Shown piece after piece: positions 105 to 59,220 of a DNA stretch of 64,000 bases (the stretch's first letter is position 1; every line of letters starts with the position of its first letter). This DNA is from Erysipelotrichales bacterium (GTDB taxonomy: Bacteria; Bacillota_I; Bacilli_A; RF39; UBA660). The DNA is taken from assembly GCA_022508565.1 (NCBI GenBank), contig JAFLUY010000003.1, positions 69,599 to 133,598 on the forward strand. The letters are read 5' to 3'. The notes beneath the pieces are model-generated. The model was not told where the DNA came from. It did no database searches and saw only the letters and a list, made by a program, of their open reading frames with translations. The position numbers were made by a program, and so were the translations under genes.

Positions 105-178
105 GGGTCTATAGCCAAGTGGTAAGGCGTGGGACTGCAACTCCCTGATCGTTGGTTCAAATCCGACTAGGCCCTCCA
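105..178 (+). tRNA. tRNA-Cys (anticodon GCA), CCA encoded
   Basis: Cloverleaf folded by hand: acceptor GGGTCTA/TAGGCCC, T-stem GTTGG/CCGAC with TTCAAAT loop, anticodon loop CTGCAAC, discriminator T followed by CCA. Confidence 0.8.
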
Positions 179-12577: not shown

Positions 12578-12935
12578 TGGTGGAGTCGAGCGGACTTGAA
12601 CCGCTGTCCAGATTACTCTTTTAAGTAGCGTCTACAAGTTTAGTTAGAAATCATAATTTCATAAGTACCATAAGCTTCTAACAAACAAGATACTTACTAT
12701 CTTATAAATATTCGTCTACATCATATAAGAACTAACATAGATATATTCCATATATATGAACCGCTATAATAACTATGGAAGAATTATTACATCAGCGCTC
12801 GTCTGCTAATTATTAAGCAGCTGCTAGAGCAAAATTAAATTTATTGTCAGTTAATTTTAAATTTTTGTCACTTAGGATTGACTACCACTTGCAACTAAAT
12901 CAAGACTGTAACCTGTCGAAACCAAATACGACCCC
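12578..12935 (-). ncRNA. ssrA: tmRNA (ssrA)
   Basis: On the - strand: 5' GGGGTCGTATTTGGTTTCGACAGG..., 3' GGTTCAAGTCCGCTCGACTCCACCA. Tag ORF ...GAC AAT AAA TTT AAT TTT GCT CTA GCA GCT GCT TAA TAA (tag about DNKFNFALAAA). Confidence 0.85.
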
Positions 12936-13913: not shown

Positions 13914-14192
13914 TTATTCTTCTTCAGTCGCATTTTTTAATTCTTTTTCATATTCTTCTAAAATGGCATCAGTAAAAATTTGACGTGCTTCTGGGTTAAT
14001 TGGATGAGCTATATCTCTATATTCTCCAGGAGCAGTTTGTTTACTAGGCATTGCTAAGAATAAACCATTGTCTCCTTCAAGAATTCTAATATCATGTACA
14101 ACAAATTGATTATCAATTGTCACAGATGCGAATCCTCTCATTTTTGAATTTTCCTTTTCAACTACACGTACACGTACATTTGTAATCTCCAT
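13914..14192 (-). CDS. spoVG: septation protein SpoVG
   Basis: MEITNVRVRVV...FVVHDIRILEGDNGLFLAMPSK..YRDIAHPIN is near-identical in pattern to SpoVG. Confidence 0.85.
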   Translation of the reverse strand: MEITNVRVRVVEKENSKMRGFASVTIDNQFVVHDIRILEGDNGLFLAMPSKQTAPGEYRDIAHPINPEARQIFTDAILEEYEKELKNATEEE

Positions 14193-14254
14193 CCTGCATT
14201 CACCTCTCTATTATAAGTTAATTGTAATACAATTTAAAGATAATTGCAATATTT

Positions 14255-15013
14255 TTATCTTGGATAGCCAACGTACATCATACCATTTCCCAAAATACCG
14301 CCTATACCATTTTTACCATATTTTGTCTTACTTAATAATTCTTTAATATTAATCATTTCGTCTCTTTTTGTTAGAGAAACATTAACAGCTATTACAGCTG
14401 GATCTAATGCATGAATATTAACTCGCTTGGGACTAGAAGCAAAATTTGCTCCACTTTTAATTAAATCTTCATAATCACTTTGACATGCGCCTGCTACAAT
14501 TACTAATTTTTCATGAGACTTTTCATATTCACGTGCTTTCAATATTGTATCTCTAAAATATTTAGAGTTTTTATAATTATTAATATTGTTAATATCTCCG
14601 TTTTTATCATAATATGCATCATGACCAGTGATAACTAAGATATCTGGTCGAGTTTCATTTAATAATTTAAGAATTGTATTAGGCATATCCGATTCTTTTA
14701 CTTGTTTACCAATTGCTAAAACATCACATTCTTTATAAAAAGTTAAAGACTTATTTAAATAATCGATATCCCCATCTATATGAAGAATTTTTCCTGGTAA
14801 ATAAAAATATTCATCTCTTTCTAACATCTCTGTATCAAGAGTAGGTCGATAATCATCTACTTTATCAGATAAAACTAAATCTTCTAAGTCTGCATCAGCA
14901 TAAAGTCTTATATCAGTTCCCTTAAGTAAAGCAACTTTATCTTTAATTTCTAAAATTATAAAATTAATATCATTATTATGGCTTATTCTTGAAACAATAT
15001 CACCTATTTTCAT
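14255..15013 (-). CDS. yabG: sporulation-specific protease YabG
   Basis: YabG-like N-terminus MKIGDIVSR... and position between ksgA and spoVG as in Bacillus. Confidence 0.65.
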   Translation of the reverse strand: MKIGDIVSRISHNNDINFIILEIKDKVALLKGTDIRLYADADLEDLVLSDKVDDYRPTLDTEMLERDEYFYLPGKILHIDGDIDYLNKSLTFYKECDVLAIGKQVKESDMPNTILKLLNETRPDILVITGHDAYYDKNGDINNINNYKNSKYFRDTILKAREYEKSHEKLVIVAGACQSDYEDLIKSGANFASSPKRVNIHALDPAVIAVNVSLTKRDEMINIKELLSKTKYGKNGIGGILGNGMMYVGYPR

Positions 15014-28792: not shown

Positions 28793-28814
28793 TATTAATC
28801 ACCTCATAAAAAAA

Positions 28815-28886
28815 GCGCACACAAACAGAGGATAATATGGCTGCTATCTTCCGATCCTGACCAGGTTATAACATATTTGTTGCGCA
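28815..28886 (-). ncRNA. ffs: SRP RNA (small 4.5S-type, ffs/scr)
   Basis: - strand reads ...AACCTGGTCAGGATCGGAAGATAGCAGCCATA... (domain IV consensus CCUGGUCAGG..CGGAAG..AGCAGCC) closed by a GCGCA/UGCGC helix and U7. Position between tadA and gyrA mirrors Bacillus. Exact ends uncertain. Confidence 0.6.
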
Positions 28887-28942
28887 AATGTATTATAACA
28901 TAATCACGAAAAAAGGAAAAACATTTATTTAATATTCAACAA

Positions 28943-29270: not shown

Positions 29271-31733
29271 TTATTCCTCAGTTTCTTGAATTTCGTCTTC
29301 TTCCTCAGATTCGTCGAATTTGTCTACTAAACTAACAGTCGAAACATATTGATTATCTTTAAGGTTAATAAGTTTAACTCCTTGAGTAACTCTACCTAAC
29401 TGTGAAATTTGATCAATTGGTAAACGTATTAACATGCCTGAATCTGTAATAATCATTAAATCTATTTCATTGTTAACAACTTTATGTGCTACTAATGCAC
29501 CATTTTTGTCTGTTACACTTAAGGCTTTAACACCTTTGCTTCCACGTTTAGTCATTCTGTATTCACTAACAAATGTTTTCTTACCAAATCCATTCTTAGT
29601 AACTACTAGGATATTATCGTCTTCTTTACCAATTTCCATTCCCGTACAATAGCCAGAGTCAAGGTTAATTCCTTTAACTCCTGAGGCTGTTCTACCCATA
29701 GGTCTAACCTCATTTTCATCAAATACTACCATTCTACCAGTAGAACTTCCAAGAATAACTTTTGAACTTCCATCTGTTAGTTTAACATCAAGTAACTCAT
29801 CGTTTTCTTTTAGAGTTATAGCTATTTTACCGCTTACTCTTATATTTGCAAATTCATCTACTAGTGTACGTTTTACAATACCATTTTTAGTAGCAAATAT
29901 TAAATATTTACCTTCAGAATCTTTATTGTAAGCAACAATTGAATTAATTCTTTCATCTTTTTCAATTTGTAAAAGATTAATAATTGGTAATCCTTTTGCT
30001 TGTCTAGAGTATTCAGGAATTTCATAACCCTTAATACGATATACTTTACCTTTATTTGTAAAGAATGTTACATAGTCATGAGTCGAACAGTTAACTAAAT
30101 GTTTAACATAATCTTCTTCATTAGTAGACATACCTTTAACTCCGACTCCTCCACGATGTTGAGATTTAAATGTGTCAGATATACACCTTTTAATGTATCC
30201 TTTATCAGTTATACTAATCATTATATCTTCTTCAGGTATTAATGATTCATCATCAATGAAGTCTACAGCTGTCATATCGATGTATGTACGACGTTCATCA
30301 GCATATCTATCTTTAATTTCTGATAATTCTTCTTTAATTATATTAAGAACTAATTGATCGTTAGCCAAAATTGCTTTATATTCTTCAATTTTCTTTAATA
30401 ATTCTTCTAATTCATTAAGAATCTTGTCTTTTTCAAGACCAGTAAGTCTTCTTAAACGCATTTCTAGTATTGCTTCTGTTTGAATATCTGTTAATCCGAA
30501 TCTTTCAGATAGCGTTTGTTTAGCTTCTTCATCACTGTCAGATCCTCTAATTATCTTAACCACTTCGTCAATGTTTTCTAGTGCAATTCTATAACCATTT
30601 AAGATGTGTACACGTTCTTCTGCTCTTCCTAAATCATATTTGGTTCTTCTAATAATGATTTCTTTTTGGAACTCAATATATTTAGCAATAATCTCTTTAA
30701 GACCTAAAGTTCTAGGTTTTTGTTGATCTAACATTAAGAAATTAATACTGAAATTAGATTGTAATGTTGTTTGTTTATATAAATTGTTTAAAACTACATT
30801 AGCATTTGCATCTTTCTTAAGTGTAATTACTATTTTTACACCATTTTCTAAGTTAGTTTCTTCATGTAAATCCGCTATTCCATCAATAAGTTTATCTCTA
30901 ACAAGTTCAGCAATTCTTTGTTGGAACATCTTTTTATTTACCATATAAGGTAATTCTGTTATTACTATCAATTGATGTCCATTGCTTTCTTCTATTGCAA
31001 CTTTACCACGAAGTGTAATAGTTCCTTTTCCTGTTTCATAAGCTTTTCTTATACCTGAATTACCAAGTATAACAGCTCCTGTTGGAAAATCTGGTCCTTT
31101 TACATAATTCATTAACTCTTCAGTAGTTATATCTTGGTTGTCAATATATGCAATACATCCATCAATTGTTTCACCTAAGTTATGTGGAGGAATGTTTGTA
31201 GCCATACCTACGGCAATTCCAATTGTTCCATTAACTAAAATATTTGGAAATCTTGAAGGAATTACTGATGGTTCTGTTGTTGTATCATCAAAATTTGGTA
31301 CAAAATCAACTGTTTCCTTTTTAATATCTCTTAGTAATTCTAAAGATAATTTAGATAGACGAGCTTCTGTATAACGCATTGCTGCTGCTCCATCGCCATC
31401 CATTGAACCGAAATTACCATGTCCTTCAATTAATACATTTCTATATGAGAATGGTTGAGCCATACGTACCATTGCATCATATATTGCAACATCTCCGTGT
31501 GGATGATAATTACCCATAACCTCTCCAACCGTTTTAGCTGATTTTCTAAAAGGTTTATCAGGTGTATAACCATTTTCATACATCGAATATAAAATTCTTC
31601 TGTGAACAGGTTTTAAACCATCTCTAAGGTCAGGTAAAGCACGAGCAACAATTACACTCATTGAATAATCTAAAAATGATTCTTTAATTTCAGTAACAAT
31701 ATTCTTTTGTACTATATTTCCTGTATTTGCCAT
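29271..31733 (-). CDS. gyrA: DNA gyrase subunit A
   Basis: 820 aa, active-site region [10 protein letters not shown]-terminal beta-pinwheel repeats and acidic tail. Confidence 0.95.
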
Positions 31734-31744
31734 TCTTCACCCTC

Positions 31745-33658
31745 CTAAACATCTAGATTTTCTACATAATGAGCATTTTCTACGATAAAATCTCTTCTTG
31801 GCTCTACATTATCACTCATTAGCAATTCAAATGCTGCATCAGCTGCCATTGCATCATCAACAGTTATTTGTTTTAAAGTTCTCTTTTCTGGACTCATTGT
31901 TGTTTCTCTTAATTCAATAGCGTCCATTTCTCCTAAACCTTTAAATCTACTAATTTCTTTTTTTGTATTTTCTGGTATTTCTGCTAATATTTGATTTAAT
32001 TCATCATCTGTCATTGCTAGCTTTTGATTTTTTCCATATGTAACTTTGTATAAAGGGGGAGTTGCTGCATAAACATATCCTCCTTCAACCACAGGTTTAA
32101 AGAAACGATAGAATAATGTTAATAATAATGTTCTAATATGTGCTCCATCAACATCGGCATCGGTCATTATTATTATTTTATGATATCTTAATTTTTCAAT
32201 ATCAAATTCGTCGCCAATTCCTGTACCAAAAGCAGTTATCATACTTCTAATTTCTTCATTAGCTAAAGCTCTATCTAAACGTGCTTTTTCGACATTTAAT
32301 ATTTTTCCACGAAGAGGAAGAATTGCTTGAGTCATAAAGTCTCTTCCATCTTTTGCAGAACCACCTGCCGAATCACCTTCGACAATAAATATTTCACATT
32401 CACTTGGATCTTTACTCTTACAATCAGTAAGTTTACCCATGAAGTTAATATTATCTAATCCGCCTTTTCTTCTAGTTAATTCACGTGCTTTTTTAGCAGC
32501 TAATCTAGCTCTAGCAGCTGTAGTACACTTTTCAACTATTAATCTAGCTTCATTAGGATTTTCCATAAGGAATCTTTCAAATCCTTCATTAAATAGGTCT
32601 GAAGCAATCTTTCTTACTTCACTGTTACCTAATTTAGTCTTTGTTTGACCTTCAAATTGAGGATTTGGGTGTTTACAAGAAATAATCATTGTAACACCTT
32701 CTCTAACATCATCGCCAGTTAAGGCTTCATCATTATCTTTTAATAATTTATTATTACGTGCATAATTGTTAATTACTCTTGTTAAGGCATTTTTTACACC
32801 GTCTTCATGTGTTCCACCTTCAACAGTATGAATATTGTTAGTAAATGAATAAATATTTGAATTATATCCATCATTATATTGCATTGCAACTTCAACAATA
32901 ATACCTTCTTGTTCTCCTTCAACATAAATTACATTTTCATGTAAAGGCGTCTTATTTTTATTAAGCATTTGTACATACTCAATTATTCCGCCTAAATAAT
33001 GATAAGTTGCATTCTTTTCATCTTCTCTTTCATCTCTTAAGAAAATTTTTAGTCCTTTATTTAAGAATGCTATTTCTCTTAATCTTTGTTCTAATGTTTC
33101 ATAACTATACACAGTAGTTTCTTGAAAAATTTCTGGATCAGCTTTAAATCTTACTTCGGTTCCTGTGTTATTCTCATCACACTCACCTATAATTTCTAGT
33201 TTTCCAGTAGGTTTTCCGCCATTTTCAAATCTTAAAAAATGAATTTTACCTTCTCTAAATACTTTAACTTCAACCCAGGAAGATAAAGCGTTTACTACAG
33301 ATGCACCAACTCCATGAAGTCCACCACTAACCTTGTAGCCTCCACCACCGAATTTACCACCAGCATGTAATACAGTAAATATTGTTTCAATAGTTGATAA
33401 ACCAGTTTTTTCATTAATACCTGTTGGCATTCCTCTACCGTTATCTCTAACTTTTATTATATTTCCTTTTTCAATAGTTACTTGAATTTCTGTACAATAC
33501 CCAGCTAAAGCTTCATCAACTGCGTTATCAACAATTTCCCATACTAAATGATGTAGACCTCTTTCACTAGTTGTACCTATATACATACCTGGTCTTTTTC
33601 TAACAGCTTCTAGTCCTTCCAATACTTGAATTGCACTATCGTTATATTCATTTTTCAT
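31745..33658 (-). CDS. gyrB: DNA gyrase subunit B
   Basis: GHKL ATPase, Toprim [20 protein letters not shown]. Start at MKNEYNDS with GAGGAGG RBS. Confidence 0.95.
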
Positions 33659-34748
33659 AACATTCCTCCTCAACTTTACCATTTATAACATTAAAAATCT
33701 TACTATTTTCTTTCAATTTATTTGCTACTTTATCTAATTCTGTAGTTGTAACAAAGGTTTGAATCTCATCACTTATAAAATCTAAAATATTATTAATTTT
33801 CTCTTCATCTAACTCACTAAATAAATCATCTAAAATCAATATAGGAACAACCCCTTTTTTATCCTTAAATATCTCAATTTCTCCCATTTTTAAGGAAATA
33901 ATGGCATTTTTTTGTTCACCCTCAGAACCATAATCTTTTAAACTAAAATTATTTAAAGAAAAATCATAGTCATCTCGATGAATTCCTATATTTGTCTTTC
34001 CTAAAACTATATCTCTATCTTTTTCTTTTTTATAAATGTTTTTCAAATCCTCTTTAGATTTTCCAGTATAATTAGAATTATATTTTAATTCTAATCCTTC
34101 TTTTCCAGCAATTTTTAAATAATTTTTACTTATATAGACATTTAAATCATTTATAAAATTTTGTCGATAATCATTCACTTTTAAACCTAATTCTATTAAT
34201 TGATCAGTTAAAATATCTAAATAATCTAAAGAAGCATTACCATTTAAATACATAGTTTTAAGATAAGAATTTCTTTGCTTTAGAACTTTATTGTAGTAAG
34301 TTAATATTTTTAAATAATCATTAGATAACTGTGATAATTCAATATTTATTAACTTTCTTCTAGTATTAGGTGTATCTTTTATTAATTTTAAATCTTCAGA
34401 AGTAAATAAAACTATATTAATATTAGATAAGTAATAAGCTAATTTTTCTATATTAGTATTATTAATTTTAACTTTCTTCAAATTATTTTTAATAATAACC
34501 TTATAATTATCTTTATTTTTATCCTCTATTGTTCCTTCAATTCTCGTAAGATCAGTATTATTTTTAATAACTACTTCTTCTTTTGAACCTCTAAAAGATT
34601 TAGTAAATGCTAAAACATATATGGCTTCAACTATATTAGTTTTACCCATTCCATTTTTACCAATAATTATATTTTTTGATGGATTAAATGAAAGTTCTAA
34701 TTTTTCATAATTTCTAAAATTTAGTAACTTTAAATTTAAAATTTTCAT
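33648..34748 (-). CDS. recF: DNA replication/repair protein RecF
   Basis: Walker [10 protein letters not shown] and LDDLFSELD. Start at [14 protein letters not shown] with AAGGGGG RBS. The 39-aa upstream extension in the ORF track is rejected. Confidence 0.85.
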
Positions 34749-34864
34749 TTTAACCCCCTTAATTTCAATTTTAAGTGATTTTATATAATTATAGGTACAC
34801 CTATACCACATAATAATTATATCACAAAATAGATATATAAAAAAGATTTTTATAAAAAAGAACA

Positions 34865-35308
34865 TTATTTTTTTCTTAAATAATGTTCTAATTTTGTGGA
34901 TCTTAAAATTTGATTATTTATTATATTTAAACTAACATTAAAATCTATTAATATTCCGTTAGTAAATTCTATTACAGTAACCTTTTTTAACTTATTATAA
35001 TGTACTTTACTTATATTAGATAAATTAACCCATGCTACCTCTTTTAATCGGGTAGAGCAAGTTGGAAAGAATATTAAATTTTCTTTTTCACTTATTAAAA
35101 TAGGACACTTATAATTACTACCAACTAATTTTTCCGCACTTTTTTGTCTTCCATCAATTGTACTGCCATTTTTAATACAATTAATATTAACGATAACATT
35201 TGGTCTTTTATTTATAATGAATATTTCATCAGCTTCATAAACTATAGATTTATTATTATCGCATGGAATTATCGCTAAAGTCTTAGAATTAATAGTATAA
35301 TCCACCAA
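34865..35308 (-). CDS. ComK-family protein (competence transcription factor-like), TTG start
   Basis: Compared with B. subtilis ComK by recall: TLAIIPC/ATIAVLPE, LIFFPTCSTR/IFLFPTLSSTR, KEVAWVNLSNISKVHYNK.../QCGWISHVHVKEF... TTG start preceded by AGGAGGTG. Confidence 0.55.
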   Translation of the reverse strand: MVDYTINSKTLAIIPCDNNKSIVYEADEIFIINKRPNVIVNINCIKNGSTIDGRQKSAEKLVGSNYKCPILISEKENLIFFPTCSTRLKEVAWVNLSNISKVHYNKLKKVTVIEFTNGILIDFNVSLNIINNQILRSTKLEHYLRKK

Positions 35309-35386
35309 ATTTCACCTCCTGACGAGGTATTACCTTAACAAACAATTAGTATAAAATTTGTCGAAAAAAAAAGGAGTTTTCTCCTT

Positions 35387-36508
35387 TTAATAAGTTTTTA
35401 TAGGTAAAACTAGTTGTATTAATGATTCATCTGATACAGACTTAATAACAATTGGTTTTGAATCACTATTCATACAAATAATTATATCTTCATCATCTAT
35501 AGTTCTTAAAGCATCCATCATATACTTAGCACTAAATGATATCGAAATATCATCCATAATATTTCTATCAACTGTAATTCTATTTTCAGCTTTTCCAATT
35601 TCTGATGCATATGAAGTAATAATAAGTTCATTATTATTAGCATCCATTTTTACAATATTCTTTTCTTTACTTTGTGTTAATAATGATGCACCATCTATAG
35701 CATTAAAGTAATCATTTAATTTAACAGATATAATATGTTCAAATTCTGCTGGAATAAAATTAGCTGTATTTGGATAAGTTCCATTTAATAAATTTGATTG
35801 AAAAATAATATTTTCATATTTAAACATAATTTTATTATCAAATATATGAATTTCAACATTTTTATTTTCTTCGCTCATTATTTTATCCAATTCATTAATA
35901 TTTTTCCCAGGAATCACAATATCAACAACATCTTCATAAACATCAGTTAAATTAATTGTCTTTTTAGCTAAACGATAAGAATCTGTTGCTGTACATTCTA
36001 ATAAATTACCATTAACTTTTATATTTATACCAGTAAGCAATGGTCTTGATTCTTGAGTTGATACTGCAAATATAGTTTGTCTTATCATTTTCTTTAAATC
36101 ACCTGATTTAAGTTCAATAAAATGTTCGTTATCTTTTAAATCTATTTGTGGATAATCTAAACTATTTAAACAATTTAAATTATATTGACTAGTTTCTGTA
36201 TAAATTAGTATTTTTAATCCATCAATTACTTCAAAATTAATAACATCACTAGGCATCTTTTTAATGATTTCTAGTATATATTTACTTTGAATAATTATTT
36301 CTCCTTCAATTTCAATTTTTTCAATTTTATCTTTAGGTATAAAAGATTTAATTGTTAGATCAGAATCACTTGCAGTTAATGATAATCCATCTTTACTTAA
36401 TTCAAATTTAATTCCATTTAATATTGGAATAATATTTCTTGTTGATATAGCCTTACTAACATTTGTTAATTGTTCTAAAATAATATTTTTCTTAATTGAA
36501 AATTTCAT
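35387..36508 (-). CDS. dnaN: DNA polymerase III beta sliding clamp
   Basis: 373 aa, three-domain clamp pattern. Position directly downstream of dnaA. Confidence 0.9.
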   Translation of the reverse strand: MKFSIKKNIILEQLTNVSKAISTRNIIPILNGIKFELSKDGLSLTASDSDLTIKSFIPKDKIEKIEIEGEIIIQSKYILEIIKKMPSDVINFEVIDGLKILIYTETSQYNLNCLNSLDYPQIDLKDNEHFIELKSGDLKKMIRQTIFAVSTQESRPLLTGINIKVNGNLLECTATDSYRLAKKTINLTDVYEDVVDIVIPGKNINELDKIMSEENKNVEIHIFDNKIMFKYENIIFQSNLLNGTYPNTANFIPAEFEHIISVKLNDYFNAIDGASLLTQSKEKNIVKMDANNNELIITSYASEIGKAENRITVDRNIMDDISISFSAKYMMDALRTIDDEDIIICMNSDSKPIVIKSVSDESLIQLVLPIKTY

Positions 36509-38007: not shown

Positions 38008-38349
38008 TTAACCACCCTGTTCTAGTCTAATTTCTAATTAAATTTTATAACTTTTTTGTCGAAAAAGTAAAGAAAAATGTCGTAATAAAAACTATCAACA
38101 GACTTTTCGACAATTTTTTCAACAATTTATACACTATAATATAATGGATTAAATGAGTTTTCAACATTTTCAACAAATTTTTAAAAATTTATTTCAACAA
38201 GTTATAAAAAGTTTTAAACATTAAACGTTGATATTGTTGAAAAGTGTATTAATAACCTATTTTATAAGGAAAAGTAGGGAATAGTTATTGACTTATAAAT
38301 TTTAATATAATATAATAACCTTGCTTTGAGATGTGGAGGTGGAGCATTT
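38008..38349. promoter_or_regulatory. oriC region (dnaA-rpmH spacer) with repeated TTTTCAACA / TTTTCGACA 9-mers; contains the rpmH promoter
   Basis: At least 5 copies of TTTTCAACA-like and 2 inverted TTTTCGACAA/TTGTCGAAAA, plus one ACTATCAACA. TTGACT-17-TATAAT at 38288-38316. Gene-strand switch occurs here. Confidence 0.6.
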
Positions 38350-46773: not shown

Positions 46774-48699
46774 CTAACTAATGTATGCAAGTTCTGTACC
46801 ACTTAAAAAGTAAAATAGAGATTTTGATTTACTATCATATTTTCCAGAAATTGGTTCCATTGGAACAGCAACCACATTTTCTGGTTTTTGATACCAAACA
46901 TCTTCTAAAGTTTCTTCATAACTTTCCATTGTATCTAACCATATATTTTTTATAATACTTGAATATGTTTTTGGTGTATCTTTATTTAAATCATTACCAG
47001 CCCAAACAATTGCTAGAGCTTCTTTATTATAACCAACTATCCAATAATCATTATCAGTAGTACCACTTTTCAAAGCATATTTATGACTTAATTTTCCGTT
47101 TAAATATAAGACAGTTGGAGAATAATAATCCACAAAATTATAATTATATGTATTGGTCATCATTTCATTAAGAATATAGGTAATTGATTCATCTAATACT
47201 TGTTTATCTTCAACCTTTTTTTCATATAATAAATTACCATTCATATCTTCAACTCTTCTAATAAAGAATAAATCGTGACTGATTCCACCAGAAGCGAGAG
47301 TCGTATAAGCCTCTGCATAATCCAACATATTTATCTCTTTAGCGCCTAATGCTAATGAAGGAATAGCTAGTAAGTCTTCATTCAATCCGCATGTTTTTAA
47401 TGTATCAACTAACGCATTTTCACCTAAGAAAAGATGCGTTTTAACAGCATAGATATTATCGGAGTAAGCAAGTGCTGCTGCCATAGTAATCTCTTTGTTA
47501 CCATATGTATCTCCATAATTAGTAGGGGAATAAGTTTTATTTTCTCCAAATACAAAGGAAGTCTTTTCAGATTTAAAAGTAGAAGCCGTAGTCATTCCGT
47601 TATTAAGAGCAGCATAATATAAAAAAGGTTTAATTGTCGATCCAACTTGTCTTTTTGCTTGGGTAACGCGATTATACTGACTAATAGCGTAGTTTTTACC
47701 CCCTGCTAGCGCAATAACACCACCAGTATTAGGATTAACAACAATACTAGCTATTTGGTTATCGTCTTCTATTACATTATTATTTATACTTTCTTCCATT
47801 ACTGTCTGAGTATCTATATCCAAGTTTGTAAATATTCTCAATCCACCATCATCAAGTAAGCTTTTTGGTATGCTTTTTATACTTTTTAATTCTGATATTA
47901 CTGCATCTTGATAATACATTAAAGTATCTAAATTATTAGTTTGGTGCTTTCCATATAACTCTAAATTTTCAAAATCGAGTGAGTTATATTCACTACTTGT
48001 AATAATATTTCCATCTTTTAAAGCAGTAGAAACCACATAGGCTCTTTTAAATGCAGCATCTTTATTACTAATTGGGTTGTAATTATTTGGGCTTTTAGGA
48101 ATTCCTGCCAATATAATAGCTTCTTCCATAGTTATATTAGATATGTCTTTATTAAAATAATACTGAGCTGCATCCTTAACACCATATATTCCTTGTCCAA
48201 AATATATTGTATTTAAATAGCCTTCTAATATTTCATCTTTTTGATAATGAGTTTCTAACCTTATAGTCAAGAAAGCTTCTTCAATTTTTCTTTCCCATGT
48301 TTGATCAAATTCCAAGAATAGATTTTTTACATATTGTTGAGAAATAGATGAAGCCCCACCAACAATTTTTCTAGCTTTTATATTTAAATAAAGACTTTTA
48401 ATAATTCTTAGAATATCAAAACCTTTATGTTGATAAAAATGTTGGTCTTCTATATTTATAATGTATTTAACAAGTTTTTCATCAATGTTATCAAGGGATA
48501 CCCACTCTGAATTATTTGATCCTTGATAAATAACATTGTCTTTATTGTCATAAATGTAATATGAATTAGCTAAATTTAATGAAATTGGCTCAGTGAAATA
48601 TGCAAAAACATATACTCCTATTATAGATATAACTCCTAAAACGAAGAGGAATATTCCAAATTTAAATAGCCATTTTAAATATTTCATTAAATCACCCAT
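46774..48699 (-). CDS. class A penicillin-binding protein (GT51 transglycosylase plus transpeptidase)
   Basis: EDQHFYQHKGFD, GGSSISQQ, STIKP, SDN, KSGTT motifs. N-terminal TM anchor. Confidence 0.8.
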   Translation of the reverse strand: MGDLMKYLKWLFKFGIFLFVLGVISIIGVYVFAYFTEPISLNLANSYYIYDNKDNVIYQGSNNSEWVSLDNIDEKLVKYIINIEDQHFYQHKGFDILRIIKSLYLNIKARKIVGGASSISQQYVKNLFLEFDQTWERKIEEAFLTIRLETHYQKDEILEGYLNTIYFGQGIYGVKDAAQYYFNKDISNITMEEAIILAGIPKSPNNYNPISNKDAAFKRAYVVSTALKDGNIITSSEYNSLDFENLELYGKHQTNNLDTLMYYQDAVISELKSIKSIPKSLLDDGGLRIFTNLDIDTQTVMEESINNNVIEDDNQIASIVVNPNTGGVIALAGGKNYAISQYNRVTQAKRQVGSTIKPFLYYAALNNGMTTASTFKSEKTSFVFGENKTYSPTNYGDTYGNKEITMAAALAYSDNIYAVKTHLFLGENALVDTLKTCGLNEDLLAIPSLALGAKEINMLDYAEAYTTLASGGISHDLFFIRRVEDMNGNLLYEKKVEDKQVLDESITYILNEMMTNTYNYNFVDYYSPTVLYLNGKLSHKYALKSGTTDNDYWIVGYNKEALAIVWAGNDLNKDTPKTYSSIIKNIWLDTMESYEETLEDVWYQKPENVVAVPMEPISGKYDSKSKSLFYFLSGTELAYIS

Positions 48700-51501: not shown

Positions 51502-52014
51502 ATGAAAAATGTACTAATAGCAATTGCTATTATAATTATAGTTGTACTTAACAATAAAGTAGAAAATATAATAATTCCAGAAAGCTCAATTAGATTTAGA
51601 ATTATTGCTAATTCTAATACGATTGAAGACCAAATAATAAAGAATAATTTAAGTAAAGAATTAACAAAATATATAACTGATTTAGTAATTAATGCATCTT
51701 CAAAAAAAGAAGCAAATGACATTATCAATAGTAATTATAAAAATATTGAAAAATATATTGATAACTATTTAGATATAAACAATATTAAAACAACATATAA
51801 CTTATCTATTGGAAAAAATTATTTTGATGCAAAAAGCTATAAAGGAGTAAAATATAATTCAGGTTATTATGATTCTATAGTTTTATCACTTGGAAATAAG
51901 AAAGGAATTAACTGGTGGTGTGTCATGTATCCACCACTATGTTTAATTGATCAAAGTGAAGATGTAGAATATACGACATTGGTAAAAGATATGCTAAATA
52001 AATACAAAATTTAG
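51502..52014 (+). CDS. spoIIR: stage II sporulation protein R
   Basis: Signal/TM N-terminus and hallmark NWWCVMYPPLC. Confidence 0.75.
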   Translation: MKNVLIAIAIIIIVVLNNKVENIIIPESSIRFRIIANSNTIEDQIIKNNLSKELTKYITDLVINASSKKEANDIINSNYKNIEKYIDNYLDINNIKTTYNLSIGKNYFDAKSYKGVKYNSGYYDSIVLSLGNKKGINWWCVMYPPLCLIDQSEDVEYTTLVKDMLNKYKI

Positions 52015-57679: not shown

Positions 57680-58540
57680 ATGAAAAATTATATATCTAAT
57701 CTTGGCTTCTCCTTAATAATAATTGTATTATTAGCACTATATTTTACTTATATAAATAATTCCACCAAGGAGGAGTCTAATTATGAAGAAGAAATTACTA
57801 TAAAGACAGACGAGAAACTAGAAGACTATATAATTAAAGTAGTTGCTTGTGAAATGCCAGCATTATATGAAGAGGAAGCATTAAAAGCACAAGCCATCGC
57901 CTCAAGAACTTACGCATTATATCAAAGAGATATTAACAATGTTACTCTTACTAAACAAGATCAATGTTTTAATTCAGAAGAAGAAATGAAAGAAAAATGG
58001 TCTAGTAATTTTAATTTATACTACAAAAAAATAAAAAATGCAGTTGAATCAACAGCATCTTTAGTAATGAAAATAGATAATAAACTGTTTAAAAGTTTTT
58101 ACTTTTCAACTTCTAATGGTTACACAGAGGATTCTATGACAGTATTTAAAGAAGGTAATATTAAATCAGTTAGTTCTGAATGGGATAAAGAAAATAAAAA
58201 CTTTGAAGTAAAAACATATTTTGAAAAACAGGACTTAATTAAAATTATAGGTGAATTTAATAATATATCTATTACAAAAAGAAGCAAAACAAATCATGTT
58301 GAAGAAGTTTCAATTGATGATAAAACAATCACAGGAATTGAGTTTCGAAAACTTCTAAACTTAAGAAGCACTGACTTTGAAATAAATAATGTCAATGATA
58401 CATATGAAATAACTACTTTTGGTTATGGACATGGAGTAGGAATGAGTCAGTTTGGTGCAAATATGCTAGCAAAAGATAACAAAACATCAGAAGAAATACT
58501 TAAATACTACTATGGAGATATTGAAATATCAAAATATTAG
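57680..58540 (+). CDS. spoIID: stage II sporulation protein D (SpoIID/LytB domain)
   Basis: N-terminal TM, EALKAQAIASRTYALYQ motif, murA-spoIID neighbourhood as in Bacillus. Confidence 0.8.
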   Translation: MKNYISNLGFSLIIIVLLALYFTYINNSTKEESNYEEEITIKTDEKLEDYIIKVVACEMPALYEEEALKAQAIASRTYALYQRDINNVTLTKQDQCFNSEEEMKEKWSSNFNLYYKKIKNAVESTASLVMKIDNKLFKSFYFSTSNGYTEDSMTVFKEGNIKSVSSEWDKENKNFEVKTYFEKQDLIKIIGEFNNISITKRSKTNHVEEVSIDDKTITGIEFRKLLNLRSTDFEINNVNDTYEITTFGYGHGVGMSQFGANMLAKDNKTSEEILKYYYGDIEISKY

Positions 58541-58590
58541 TATAATTTAACATTTTTTGTAAACACTTTAATTAGGAAGGTGATTAAATA

Positions 58591-59220
58591 ATGTCTAAAA
58601 AAATGAAGGAAATATTAAGTGTAAGTTTCTTAATCGTATTTGTTGCAGTAATAGTTGGAGTTGTTTCATTAGTATCTAAAAATATTTTTTATGCAATGGC
58701 GCCAGATGGAAATTCATATGTCTTAAGAGATATAGTGTCTTATGATTTGCCAGTTATTAGTGAAGTTGATGAAAAAATAGGAAAACCATTTAATGATGAA
58801 ACAGTAAATGTTCAAGTAAACTTTTATAATCTTGCAGATGATTCAGAAAGACAAGAAAAATCTTTAATACTATATGATAATACTTATATGCCTAGCACAG
58901 GAATACTATATTCTAGTGAAAACTCATTTGATGTATTATCTGTAGCATCAGGAACAGTTGAAAATATTGAAAATAATGAAGTGTTTGGCACAATTATTAC
59001 TATAAAACACAACAATAATTTCACAACAAAATACTCAAGCATTAAGGATGCCCAAGTAGAAATCGGTGATACAGTTAATGCTGGTGAAATAATAGGTACT
59101 AGCAGTGTTAATAAAGTAACAAGTGTTTCTGAAAACATGCTTTTATTTGAAATGATATATGATGGAAAATATGTAAATCCAGAAGATTACTATGACAAAG
59201 TAATAGAAGAAATGAATTAA
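58591..59220 (+). CDS. membrane-anchored LytM/M23-like domain protein (possibly degenerate, SpoIIQ-like)
   Basis: N-terminal TM plus C-terminal beta-rich domain with IITIKHNNN...GEIIGTS pattern. Confidence 0.45.
   Translation: MSKKMKEILSVSFLIVFVAVIVGVVSLVSKNIFYAMAPDGNSYVLRDIVSYDLPVISEVDEKIGKPFNDETVNVQVNFYNLADDSERQEKSLILYDNTYMPSTGILYSSENSFDVLSVASGTVENIENNEVFGTIITIKHNNNFTTKYSSIKDAQVEIGDTVNAGEIIGTSSVNKVTSVSENMLLFEMIYDGKYVNPEDYYDKVIEEMN

Follow-up and report, generated by a model that had tools for sequence, protein, structure and literature searches.

It is in Bacillus where ComK is the textbook bistable competence switch, and to our knowledge this regulator is little known outside the cultured Bacillales. 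In Bacillus, the slot between dnaN and recF is taken by yaaA/rlbA, which encodes an S4-domain ribosome maturation protein. The target of ComK in DNA, the K-box, consists of two AAAA-N5-TTTT boxes placed 8, 18 or 31 bp apart. The comK promoter of B. subtilis is bound directly by Spo0A~P, with activating sites located upstream and repressing sites proximal to the promoter (PMC3297582), and the Spo0A binding site, or 0A box, has kept its core TGTCGAA all the way from Bacillus to C. difficile (PMC3485338). Regarding the domains of the protein, removal of 25 C-terminal residues from B. subtilis ComK is described as preserving DNA binding while abolishing comG activation (Susanna 2006, as cited in PMC3128618 and PMC3536758). 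According to the same papers, B. cereus carries a second ComK, ComK2 (BC5250), in which the C-terminal part required for activation by B. subtilis ComK is naturally missing (PMC3128618) and which lowers comG expression (PMC3128618, PMC3536758); this ComK2 lacks 22 residues, coexists with a full-length ComK1, and is not reported at the origin. In parallel, the comCDE competence-regulator locus of S. pneumoniae was found next to oriC, at -1 degree (PMC5034851), and under replication stress the locus gains in copy number, which can set off the competence switch (PMC5034851, PMC8394987), the comCDE products being a peptide signal and a two-component system unrelated to ComK. Our search of the literature found no paper on a ComK gene together with dnaN and recF, nor on ComK or competence in organisms of the Erysipelotrichales type.

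The gene described here sits in the dnaN-recF slot of a window (the whole stretch of 64,000 nucleotides that was analysed) whose features are collected in Table 1. The dnaA, dnaN, recF, gyrB and gyrA genes are found on one strand, with rpmH, rnpA, yidC, jag, mnmE, mnmG, rsmG and parB on the opposite one, and the sign of the GC skew flips around 38 kb; given this gene set and the skew, the window corresponds to the chromosomal origin region of a Firmicute with 26% G+C. The occupant of the slot, only some 3 kb away from the GC-skew switch, is a ComK-family gene, as the original prediction had proposed from the letters of the sequence, and both its position at the origin and its exact limits, with 147 codons starting from a TTG, were borne out, the gene lying on the minus strand. 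Like yaaA/rlbA, it lies ahead of recF and is the first small gene to follow the dnaN terminator; unlike it, its product has neither sequence nor domain similarity to the S4-domain protein. The order of other genes near this origin is also Bacillus-like (metG-tatD-ksgA-yabG...spoVG and tadA-dnaX-ybaB-recR-holB), and tmRNA, small SRP RNA and tRNA genes were recognised by Rfam at gathering thresholds.

Table 1. Features of the window discussed in the text (positions count from the first letter of the window).
Feature	Position	Strand	Basis and remarks
tRNA	105-175	+	Rfam
tmRNA	12578-12935	-	Rfam
Stretch with sporulation genes	13914-15013	-	
Small SRP RNA	28800-28896	-	Rfam
gyrA	29271-31733	-	ORF list
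gyrB	31745-33658	-	probable start at 33658 (637 aa); overlaps the end of recF
recF	33648-34748	-	366 aa; ATG at 34748, preceded by AAGGGGG; 405 aa in the mechanical ORF list (33648-34865), over-extended to the ComK stop codon
Conserved recF leader-start element GGTATAGGTGTACCTATA	34790-34807	-	folding; can form a 5' stem-loop
Extended -10 promoter TGATATAAT of recF-gyrB-gyrA	34816-34824	-	TGnTATAAT in 76/77 loci; consensus TTTATGnTATAAT
Possible ComK terminator	34852-34888	-	weak AU-rich hairpin across the ComK stop codon, then T-run; -5.1 kcal/mol, z -1.0
Short-form ComK-family CDS	34865-35308	-	147 aa; TTG start, alternative GTG at 35305; ORF list, Pfam, BLASTP and AlphaFold2
Ribosome-binding site AGGAGGTG of the ComK gene	35313-35320	-	sequence; AGGAGGTGA kept 5' of the start codon in most loci
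Candidate extended -10 TGTTAAGGT of the ComK promoter	35332-35340	-	TGnTATAAG in relatives; from right-aligned intergenic regions
TTCGACA box	35359-35365	-	reverse complement of the 0A box TGTCGAA; ~21 nt upstream of the -10-like element
Intrinsic terminator after dnaN	35364-35388	-	terminator scan and folding; hairpin 35369-35388 over the dnaN stop codon, then T-run; -8.1 kcal/mol, z -2.5
dnaN	35387-36508	-	Pfam DNA_pol3_beta domains
dnaA	36658-38007	-	ORF list
rpmH-dnaA origin region	38008-38340		
Perfect 0A box in the rpmH-dnaA origin region	38057-38063	+	among TTTTCAACA-type DnaA boxes
Perfect 0A box in the rpmH-dnaA origin region	38106-38112	-	among TTTTCAACA-type DnaA boxes
Penicillin-binding proteins	46774-48699		
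Stretch with sporulation genes	51502-52014	+	
Stretch with sporulation genes	57680-59220	+	

Membership in the ComK family is clear. The Pfam ComK profile (PF06338) matches the ORF with 100.9 bits (cut-off 22.3; E 7.5e-29) over protein residues 3-146 and model positions 3-149 of 152; BLASTP with a query exactly matching COMK_BACSU (192 aa) aligns residues 12-150 of B. subtilis ComK with the window protein at 28% identity and E 1e-20, and hhalign of both proteins gives a probability of 99.8%. The two ComK-like blocks on which the family had been suggested fall within this BLASTP alignment and are aligned as claimed. Sixteen positions are invariant in the subfamily (Y4, T10, L11, I13, P15, C44, G48, R54, K67, P69, F81, P82, T83, S85, W93 and Q133), and in the pairwise alignment COMK_BACSU carries the identical residue at all of them except L11 and I13, where the residues are only similar. 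About 900 homologues were found, and the protein has already been called “competence protein ComK” in an Erysipelotrichales MAG at NCBI (P0001); an exact-sequence look-up returned nothing for the window protein or P0001, and matched the 146-aa, GTG-starting P0002. In the latter, a 99% identical homologue, the gene caller chose the GTG one codon further on, but the TTG reading, which gives an MVDY N-terminus, is the better fit to the MKDY of the relatives. An AlphaFold2 model built from 25 homologues reached a mean pLDDT of 93.6, and its only sensible Foldseek matches in the PDB were LytTR DNA-binding domains (AgrA, ComE), at probabilities of 0.92-0.99 and yet weak (E ~0.05, TM 0.4-0.59), so this LytTR-like modelled fold is a lead consistent with DNA binding by the short ComK and not a proof of it; searching the PDB by sequence gave no solved structure of any ComK relative. 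Judging from the sequence, a real and functional gene here encodes a ComK-family regulator.

This regulator is, however, of a short form compared with B. subtilis ComK. The alignment stops at residue 150 of the 192 residues of the latter and the window protein ends 7 residues further, which leaves out about 40 C-terminal residues, including the last 25-35 that are reported as necessary for comG activation; it resembles in this respect ComK2 of B. cereus, although the truncation is deeper than the 22 residues missing there. An exhaustive profile search of the ComK family gave 1941 representatives at 50% identity, and given that the top ~100 of them are nearly all of 140-157 aa, with the canonical forms of 185-200 aa appearing only below, the short ComKs constitute a sizeable subfamily of their own, of about 100 clusters at 50% identity, whose nearest long relatives are the ComKs of Bacillaceae. 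The absence of this region speaks against an activator of the classical ComK kind and makes anti-repression or repression as likely as classical activation. We also observed that ComK diverges faster than its neighbours at short distance (62% identity in locus L001 vs. 82-89% for DnaA, DnaN, RecF and GyrB), and that at long distance its identity to the window plateaus at 37-45%, like those of RecF and DnaN (L001-L088).

The conservation of the placement was researched by means of a one-genome-per-species scan with a subfamily-specific peptide pattern, which yielded 80 loci of about 10 kb per genome, all of them from uncultured MAGs labelled as Bacilli, Tenericutes, Mollicutes or Erysipelotrichaceae/Erysipelotrichales, and the gene order was determined by tblastn with the DnaA, DnaN, RecF, GyrB and GyrA of the window. 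What such a pattern can reveal is a fixed place of this subfamily at the origin, and not that these genomes are devoid of other ComKs. The order dnaA-dnaN-ComK-recF-gyrB-gyrA was found in 76 of the 80 loci, a count that overstates the independent events because the loci share descent; two more read dnaA-dnaN-ComK up to the contig end, and only two (L030 and L038) carry the short ComK elsewhere. The placement in the window is therefore no one-off, and the dnaN-ComK-recF order was likewise found in metagenome contigs. Since the identity to the window goes down to 44% for DnaA and 65% for GyrB among these loci, the arrangement spans a deep radiation. In contrast, B. subtilis comK lies far out on the chromosome, and the canonical 177-aa ComK of Geobacillus, taken as a control, lies away from the origin, beside addB. 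In the two relocated cases, the copy of L030 (5001-5450 of that locus) is downstream of pcrA, a VanY-type peptidase gene and ligA, while that of L038 (575-1024) is upstream of a polysaccharide deacetylase gene, and both retain GACA repeats about 10 nt apart in their upstream region.

As for the usual occupant of the slot, tblastn with the exact sequence of B. subtilis RlbA/YaaA against the window and 93 related loci yielded no match below E = 3, so that neither the window nor the ~5 kb around the slot of any related locus showed an rlbA-like gene. Three loci with unusually long slots were inspected for a hidden yaaA and contain unrelated ORFs instead: one of 303 aa between dnaN and ComK (L078, 3948-4859), one of 235 aa between ComK and recF (L055, 5496-6203), and a repeat-containing one of 100 aa in the slot (L010, 3317-3619). 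The block thus tolerates insertions.

In one respect the locus departs from what had been predicted, namely a ComK gene embedded in a dnaA-dnaN-recF-gyrB operon. A hairpin followed by a T-run is located after dnaN, in the same place and with differing sequence, in ~70 of the 77 non-identical loci, and the extended -10 promoter of recF is present in all but one of these 77. Nearly all loci have some 100 nt of intergenic DNA on either side of ComK (medians 110 and 118), whereas recF and gyrB abut or overlap. Downstream of ComK itself, 51 of 77 loci show a T-run with a hairpin no weaker than -4 kcal/mol, and given that the one in the window is weak (z -1.0), some read-through into recF is possible there. 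No RNA family was detected in the two intergenic regions flanking ComK, the sole sub-threshold match being on the terminator hairpin. As far as can be read from these elements, the ComK gene is a transcription unit of its own, separate from the replication operon.

The promoter of this unit has a peculiar design. When the loci are right-aligned, one to three copies of TTCGACA precede an extended -10 of the TGnTATAAG type, which is followed by a strong ribosome-binding site; the wider pattern TGnTA[TA]AA is present in the ComK promoter region of 31 of the 77 loci. Exact TTCGACA has a density of 6.8 per kb between dnaN and ComK, of 0.09 per kb elsewhere in the loci (~75-fold less) and of 0 between ComK and recF, and successive copies are spaced by 10 or 20 nt. 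Allowing up to one mismatch, the box is found in 72 of 77 loci, 48 of which have two or more, and the exact box occurs in loci of all 8 deep clusters (RecF below 55% identity), with exact TCGACA being absent in 28 of the 77. The window has one exact box only, and it is this one that places a 0A box in the promoter region, the mark by which a member of the Spo0A regulon would be recognised. In some clades, an inverted pair TTCGACA-N-TGTCGAA is found 3' of the -10, which recalls the activating and repressing Spo0A sites of the B. subtilis comK promoter (PMC3297582). Given that the boxes match the Spo0A binding site, gating by Spo0A~P is the most likely mechanism.

The rest of the window is in keeping with a sporulation background, as it encodes SpoIIR (E 1.7e-34), SpoIID, YabG and SpoVG, from which we take the organism either to form endospores or to descend recently from an endospore former, and the presence of spo0A has been reported for Erysipelotrichales and RF39 and for part of RFN20 (PMC10868615). 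We also noted an M23 peptidase gene (SpoIIQ-like) adjoining SpoIID, and penicillin-binding proteins.

Taken as a whole, we consider it somewhat probable that a Spo0A-gated regulator of the ComK type, read as its own transcription unit, has been fixed beside the origin since the ancestor of these bacteria. In this explanation, the short ComK would have taken the place of yaaA/rlbA between dnaN and recF in the ancestor of a large radiation of small-genome gut Bacilli, being inherited ever since. Transcription of dnaA-dnaN would end at the terminator that covers the dnaN stop codon. The ComK gene would then be read from its own sigma-A-type promoter with one to three tandem TTCGACA boxes upstream at 10-nt spacing, and transcription of recF-gyrB-gyrA would start anew at an extended -10 promoter of their own, which is strongly conserved. 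Spo0A~P, the master regulator of stationary phase and sporulation, would gate the expression of the short ComK as it does at the B. subtilis comK promoter, and the location ~3 kb from oriC would make the copy number of the gene the highest in cells that replicate or have stalled in replication. Once made, the short ComK would bind DNA and switch on a stationary-phase programme, possibly including DNA uptake, and it may do so by DNA binding with anti-repression or repression instead of classical activation. The gene-dosage link is plausible by analogy with comCDE, where the dosage effect is experimental.

The first alternative is that of an ordinary competence master regulator that activates DNA-uptake genes as in Bacillus, with its place at the origin being passively inherited and without function. 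The fixed position could indeed be neutral inheritance in one of the most stable gene blocks of bacteria, dnaA-dnaN-recF-gyrB-gyrA, where the other slot insertions (L078, L055 and L010) appear harmless, and the clear ComK homology, the NCBI name ComK and the two genomes that carry the gene elsewhere with a similar promoter also favour this possibility. We nevertheless find it rather doubtful, given that ~40 C-terminal residues are absent, where the last 25 are reported as required for comG activation, and that retention in 76 of 80 loci with DnaA identity as low as 44% is high for a neutral placement.

The second alternative concerns the protein that binds the TTCGACA repeats, which could be DnaA, the repeats then being spill-over boxes, ComK itself through autoregulation, or another regulator. 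The autoregulation of B. subtilis ComK provides a precedent for the second option (PMC3297582). The weak LytTR-like fold matches of the window protein are to regulators that bind direct repeats, and, in favour of DnaA, TTTTCGACA is one base away from the DnaA box of the clade (TTTTCCACA/TTTTCAACA), TTCGACA itself is one base away from a relaxed DnaA box, besides resembling a -35 hexamer, and perfect DnaA boxes (TGTGGATAA) are found in the dnaN-ComK region of one clade (L004, L018 and L039). Against this stands the distribution of the box types. In the oriC regions, where the commonest box across the related loci is TTTTCCACA, TCCACA and TCAACA reach 8.6 and 4.8 per kb and TCGACA does not figure among the eight most frequent TxyACA variants; in the dnaN-ComK region, by contrast, it is TCGACA that reaches 8.6 per kb, with TCCACA at 0.9 per kb. 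Because the box types of oriC and of the ComK upstream region are thus reversed, the boxes are not simply DnaA boxes, and DnaA was judged less likely as their binder. Moreover, the core is preceded on its 5' side by varying bases (AAT, AAA, CAT), which breaks the TT of DnaA boxes, and the 10-nt tandem spacing is that of the tandem 0A boxes at abrB. We therefore regard a binder other than Spo0A as unlikely for these repeats. Two further observations concern DnaA boxes. The rpmH-dnaA region of the window has no canonical TTATCCACA box and repeats TTTTCAACA/TGTTGAAAA variants instead. A perfect or near-perfect box, TGTGGATAA or TGTTGATAA, is found right after the dnaN terminator in L004, L018, L039, L012, L013, L017, L019, L020 and L035, sometimes in an inverted pair with TTATCAACA around a central TCGAC, and on account of such boxes, present after the dnaN terminator in one clade, DnaA may also act at the ComK promoter in some lineages.

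A third alternative makes the short ComK a local or replication-linked DNA-binding factor comparable to ComK2, for instance a repressor or modulator of the recF-gyrB-gyrA promoter or of origin function, in favour of which is the absence of the C-terminal activation region. ComK also adjoins the strikingly conserved recF promoter and leader, in which TGnTATAAT (76 of 77 loci) is followed 8-9 nt further 3' by GTATAGG in most loci, a sequence that occurs only once in the window. In addition, one AAAA-N5-TTTT box of the window shares bases with the -35 region of recF, and in 11 loci such a box begins 29-32 nt 5' of the recF -10 hexamer. However, in this AT-rich DNA, AAAA-Nx-TTTT is in excess for all spacings between 3 and 7, without N5 standing out; complete K-boxes with the 8-bp spacer have 9 matches in the window vs. 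4 expected, clustered on terminators, and those with the 18-bp spacer have 1 vs. 4 expected. As the enrichment of A-runs and T-runs coincides with the T-tracts of terminators, which explain the pattern, a search for ComK boxes, covering the two intergenic regions and the whole window, cannot discriminate here, and N5-specific boxes, as known for B. subtilis ComK, were not detected. The relocated copies of L030 and L038 indicate that the gene can work away from recF, and we hold such a local or replication-linked role to be quite unlikely. As to DNA uptake, none of its genes (comG, comE, comF, dprA and others) is present in the 64 kb of the window.

As regards the recF leader itself, its start, GTATAGG(A/T)GTA, can pair with an arm further downstream, located differently from clade to clade, which exposes an AGGAG-like loop, and in one clade the leader resembles a terminator (AATAGGTAT...ATACCTATT and then a T-run). 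The element matches no Rfam family, and it may be an mRNA-stabilising 5' stem-loop, a decoy Shine-Dalgarno or a protein operator. A further proposal, to which we give a low probability, is that the origin-resident short ComKs are a distinct Spo0A-controlled class of DNA-binding proteins, and not competence regulators, which would couple the entry into stationary phase or sporulation to the origin. If such coupling went through the recF-gyrB-gyrA promoter and leader or through origin DNA, which is one possible route, it would explain why ComK has stayed between dnaN and recF throughout a radiation of gut Bacilli with reduced genomes.

Finally, that the ORF is a diverged S4/YaaA (RlbA) homologue or spurious has its position alone in favour and is practically negligible, in view of the lack of any S4 match in Pfam or NCBIfam with E up to 10, the lack of RlbA similarity by tblastn, the strong full-length ComK match, the ~900 homologues, the 16 invariant residues and the confident fold model.

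In summary, the name ComK was already in NCBI, and Spo0A at the comK promoter, the truncated ComK2 and the origin-proximal competence genes are precedents for parts of our preferred reading, a Spo0A-gated short ComK at the origin. What is described here is a distinct short ComK subfamily fixed beside the origin in a large uncultured group of gut bacteria (RF39, RFN20 and Erysipelotrichales-type MAGs), which marks the place where the otherwise conserved yaaA/rlbA was lost from the origin block. It also provides concrete DNA elements, namely 0A boxes, terminators and the recF promoter with its leader, for organisms that are not yet cultivable. The predicted design of the short-ComK promoter points to control by Spo0A, and if this is true, the link from Spo0A to ComK known from B. 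subtilis would be ancient and widespread, and it would be combined in these bacteria with the origin-proximal gene dosage whose principle was demonstrated in pneumococcal competence.
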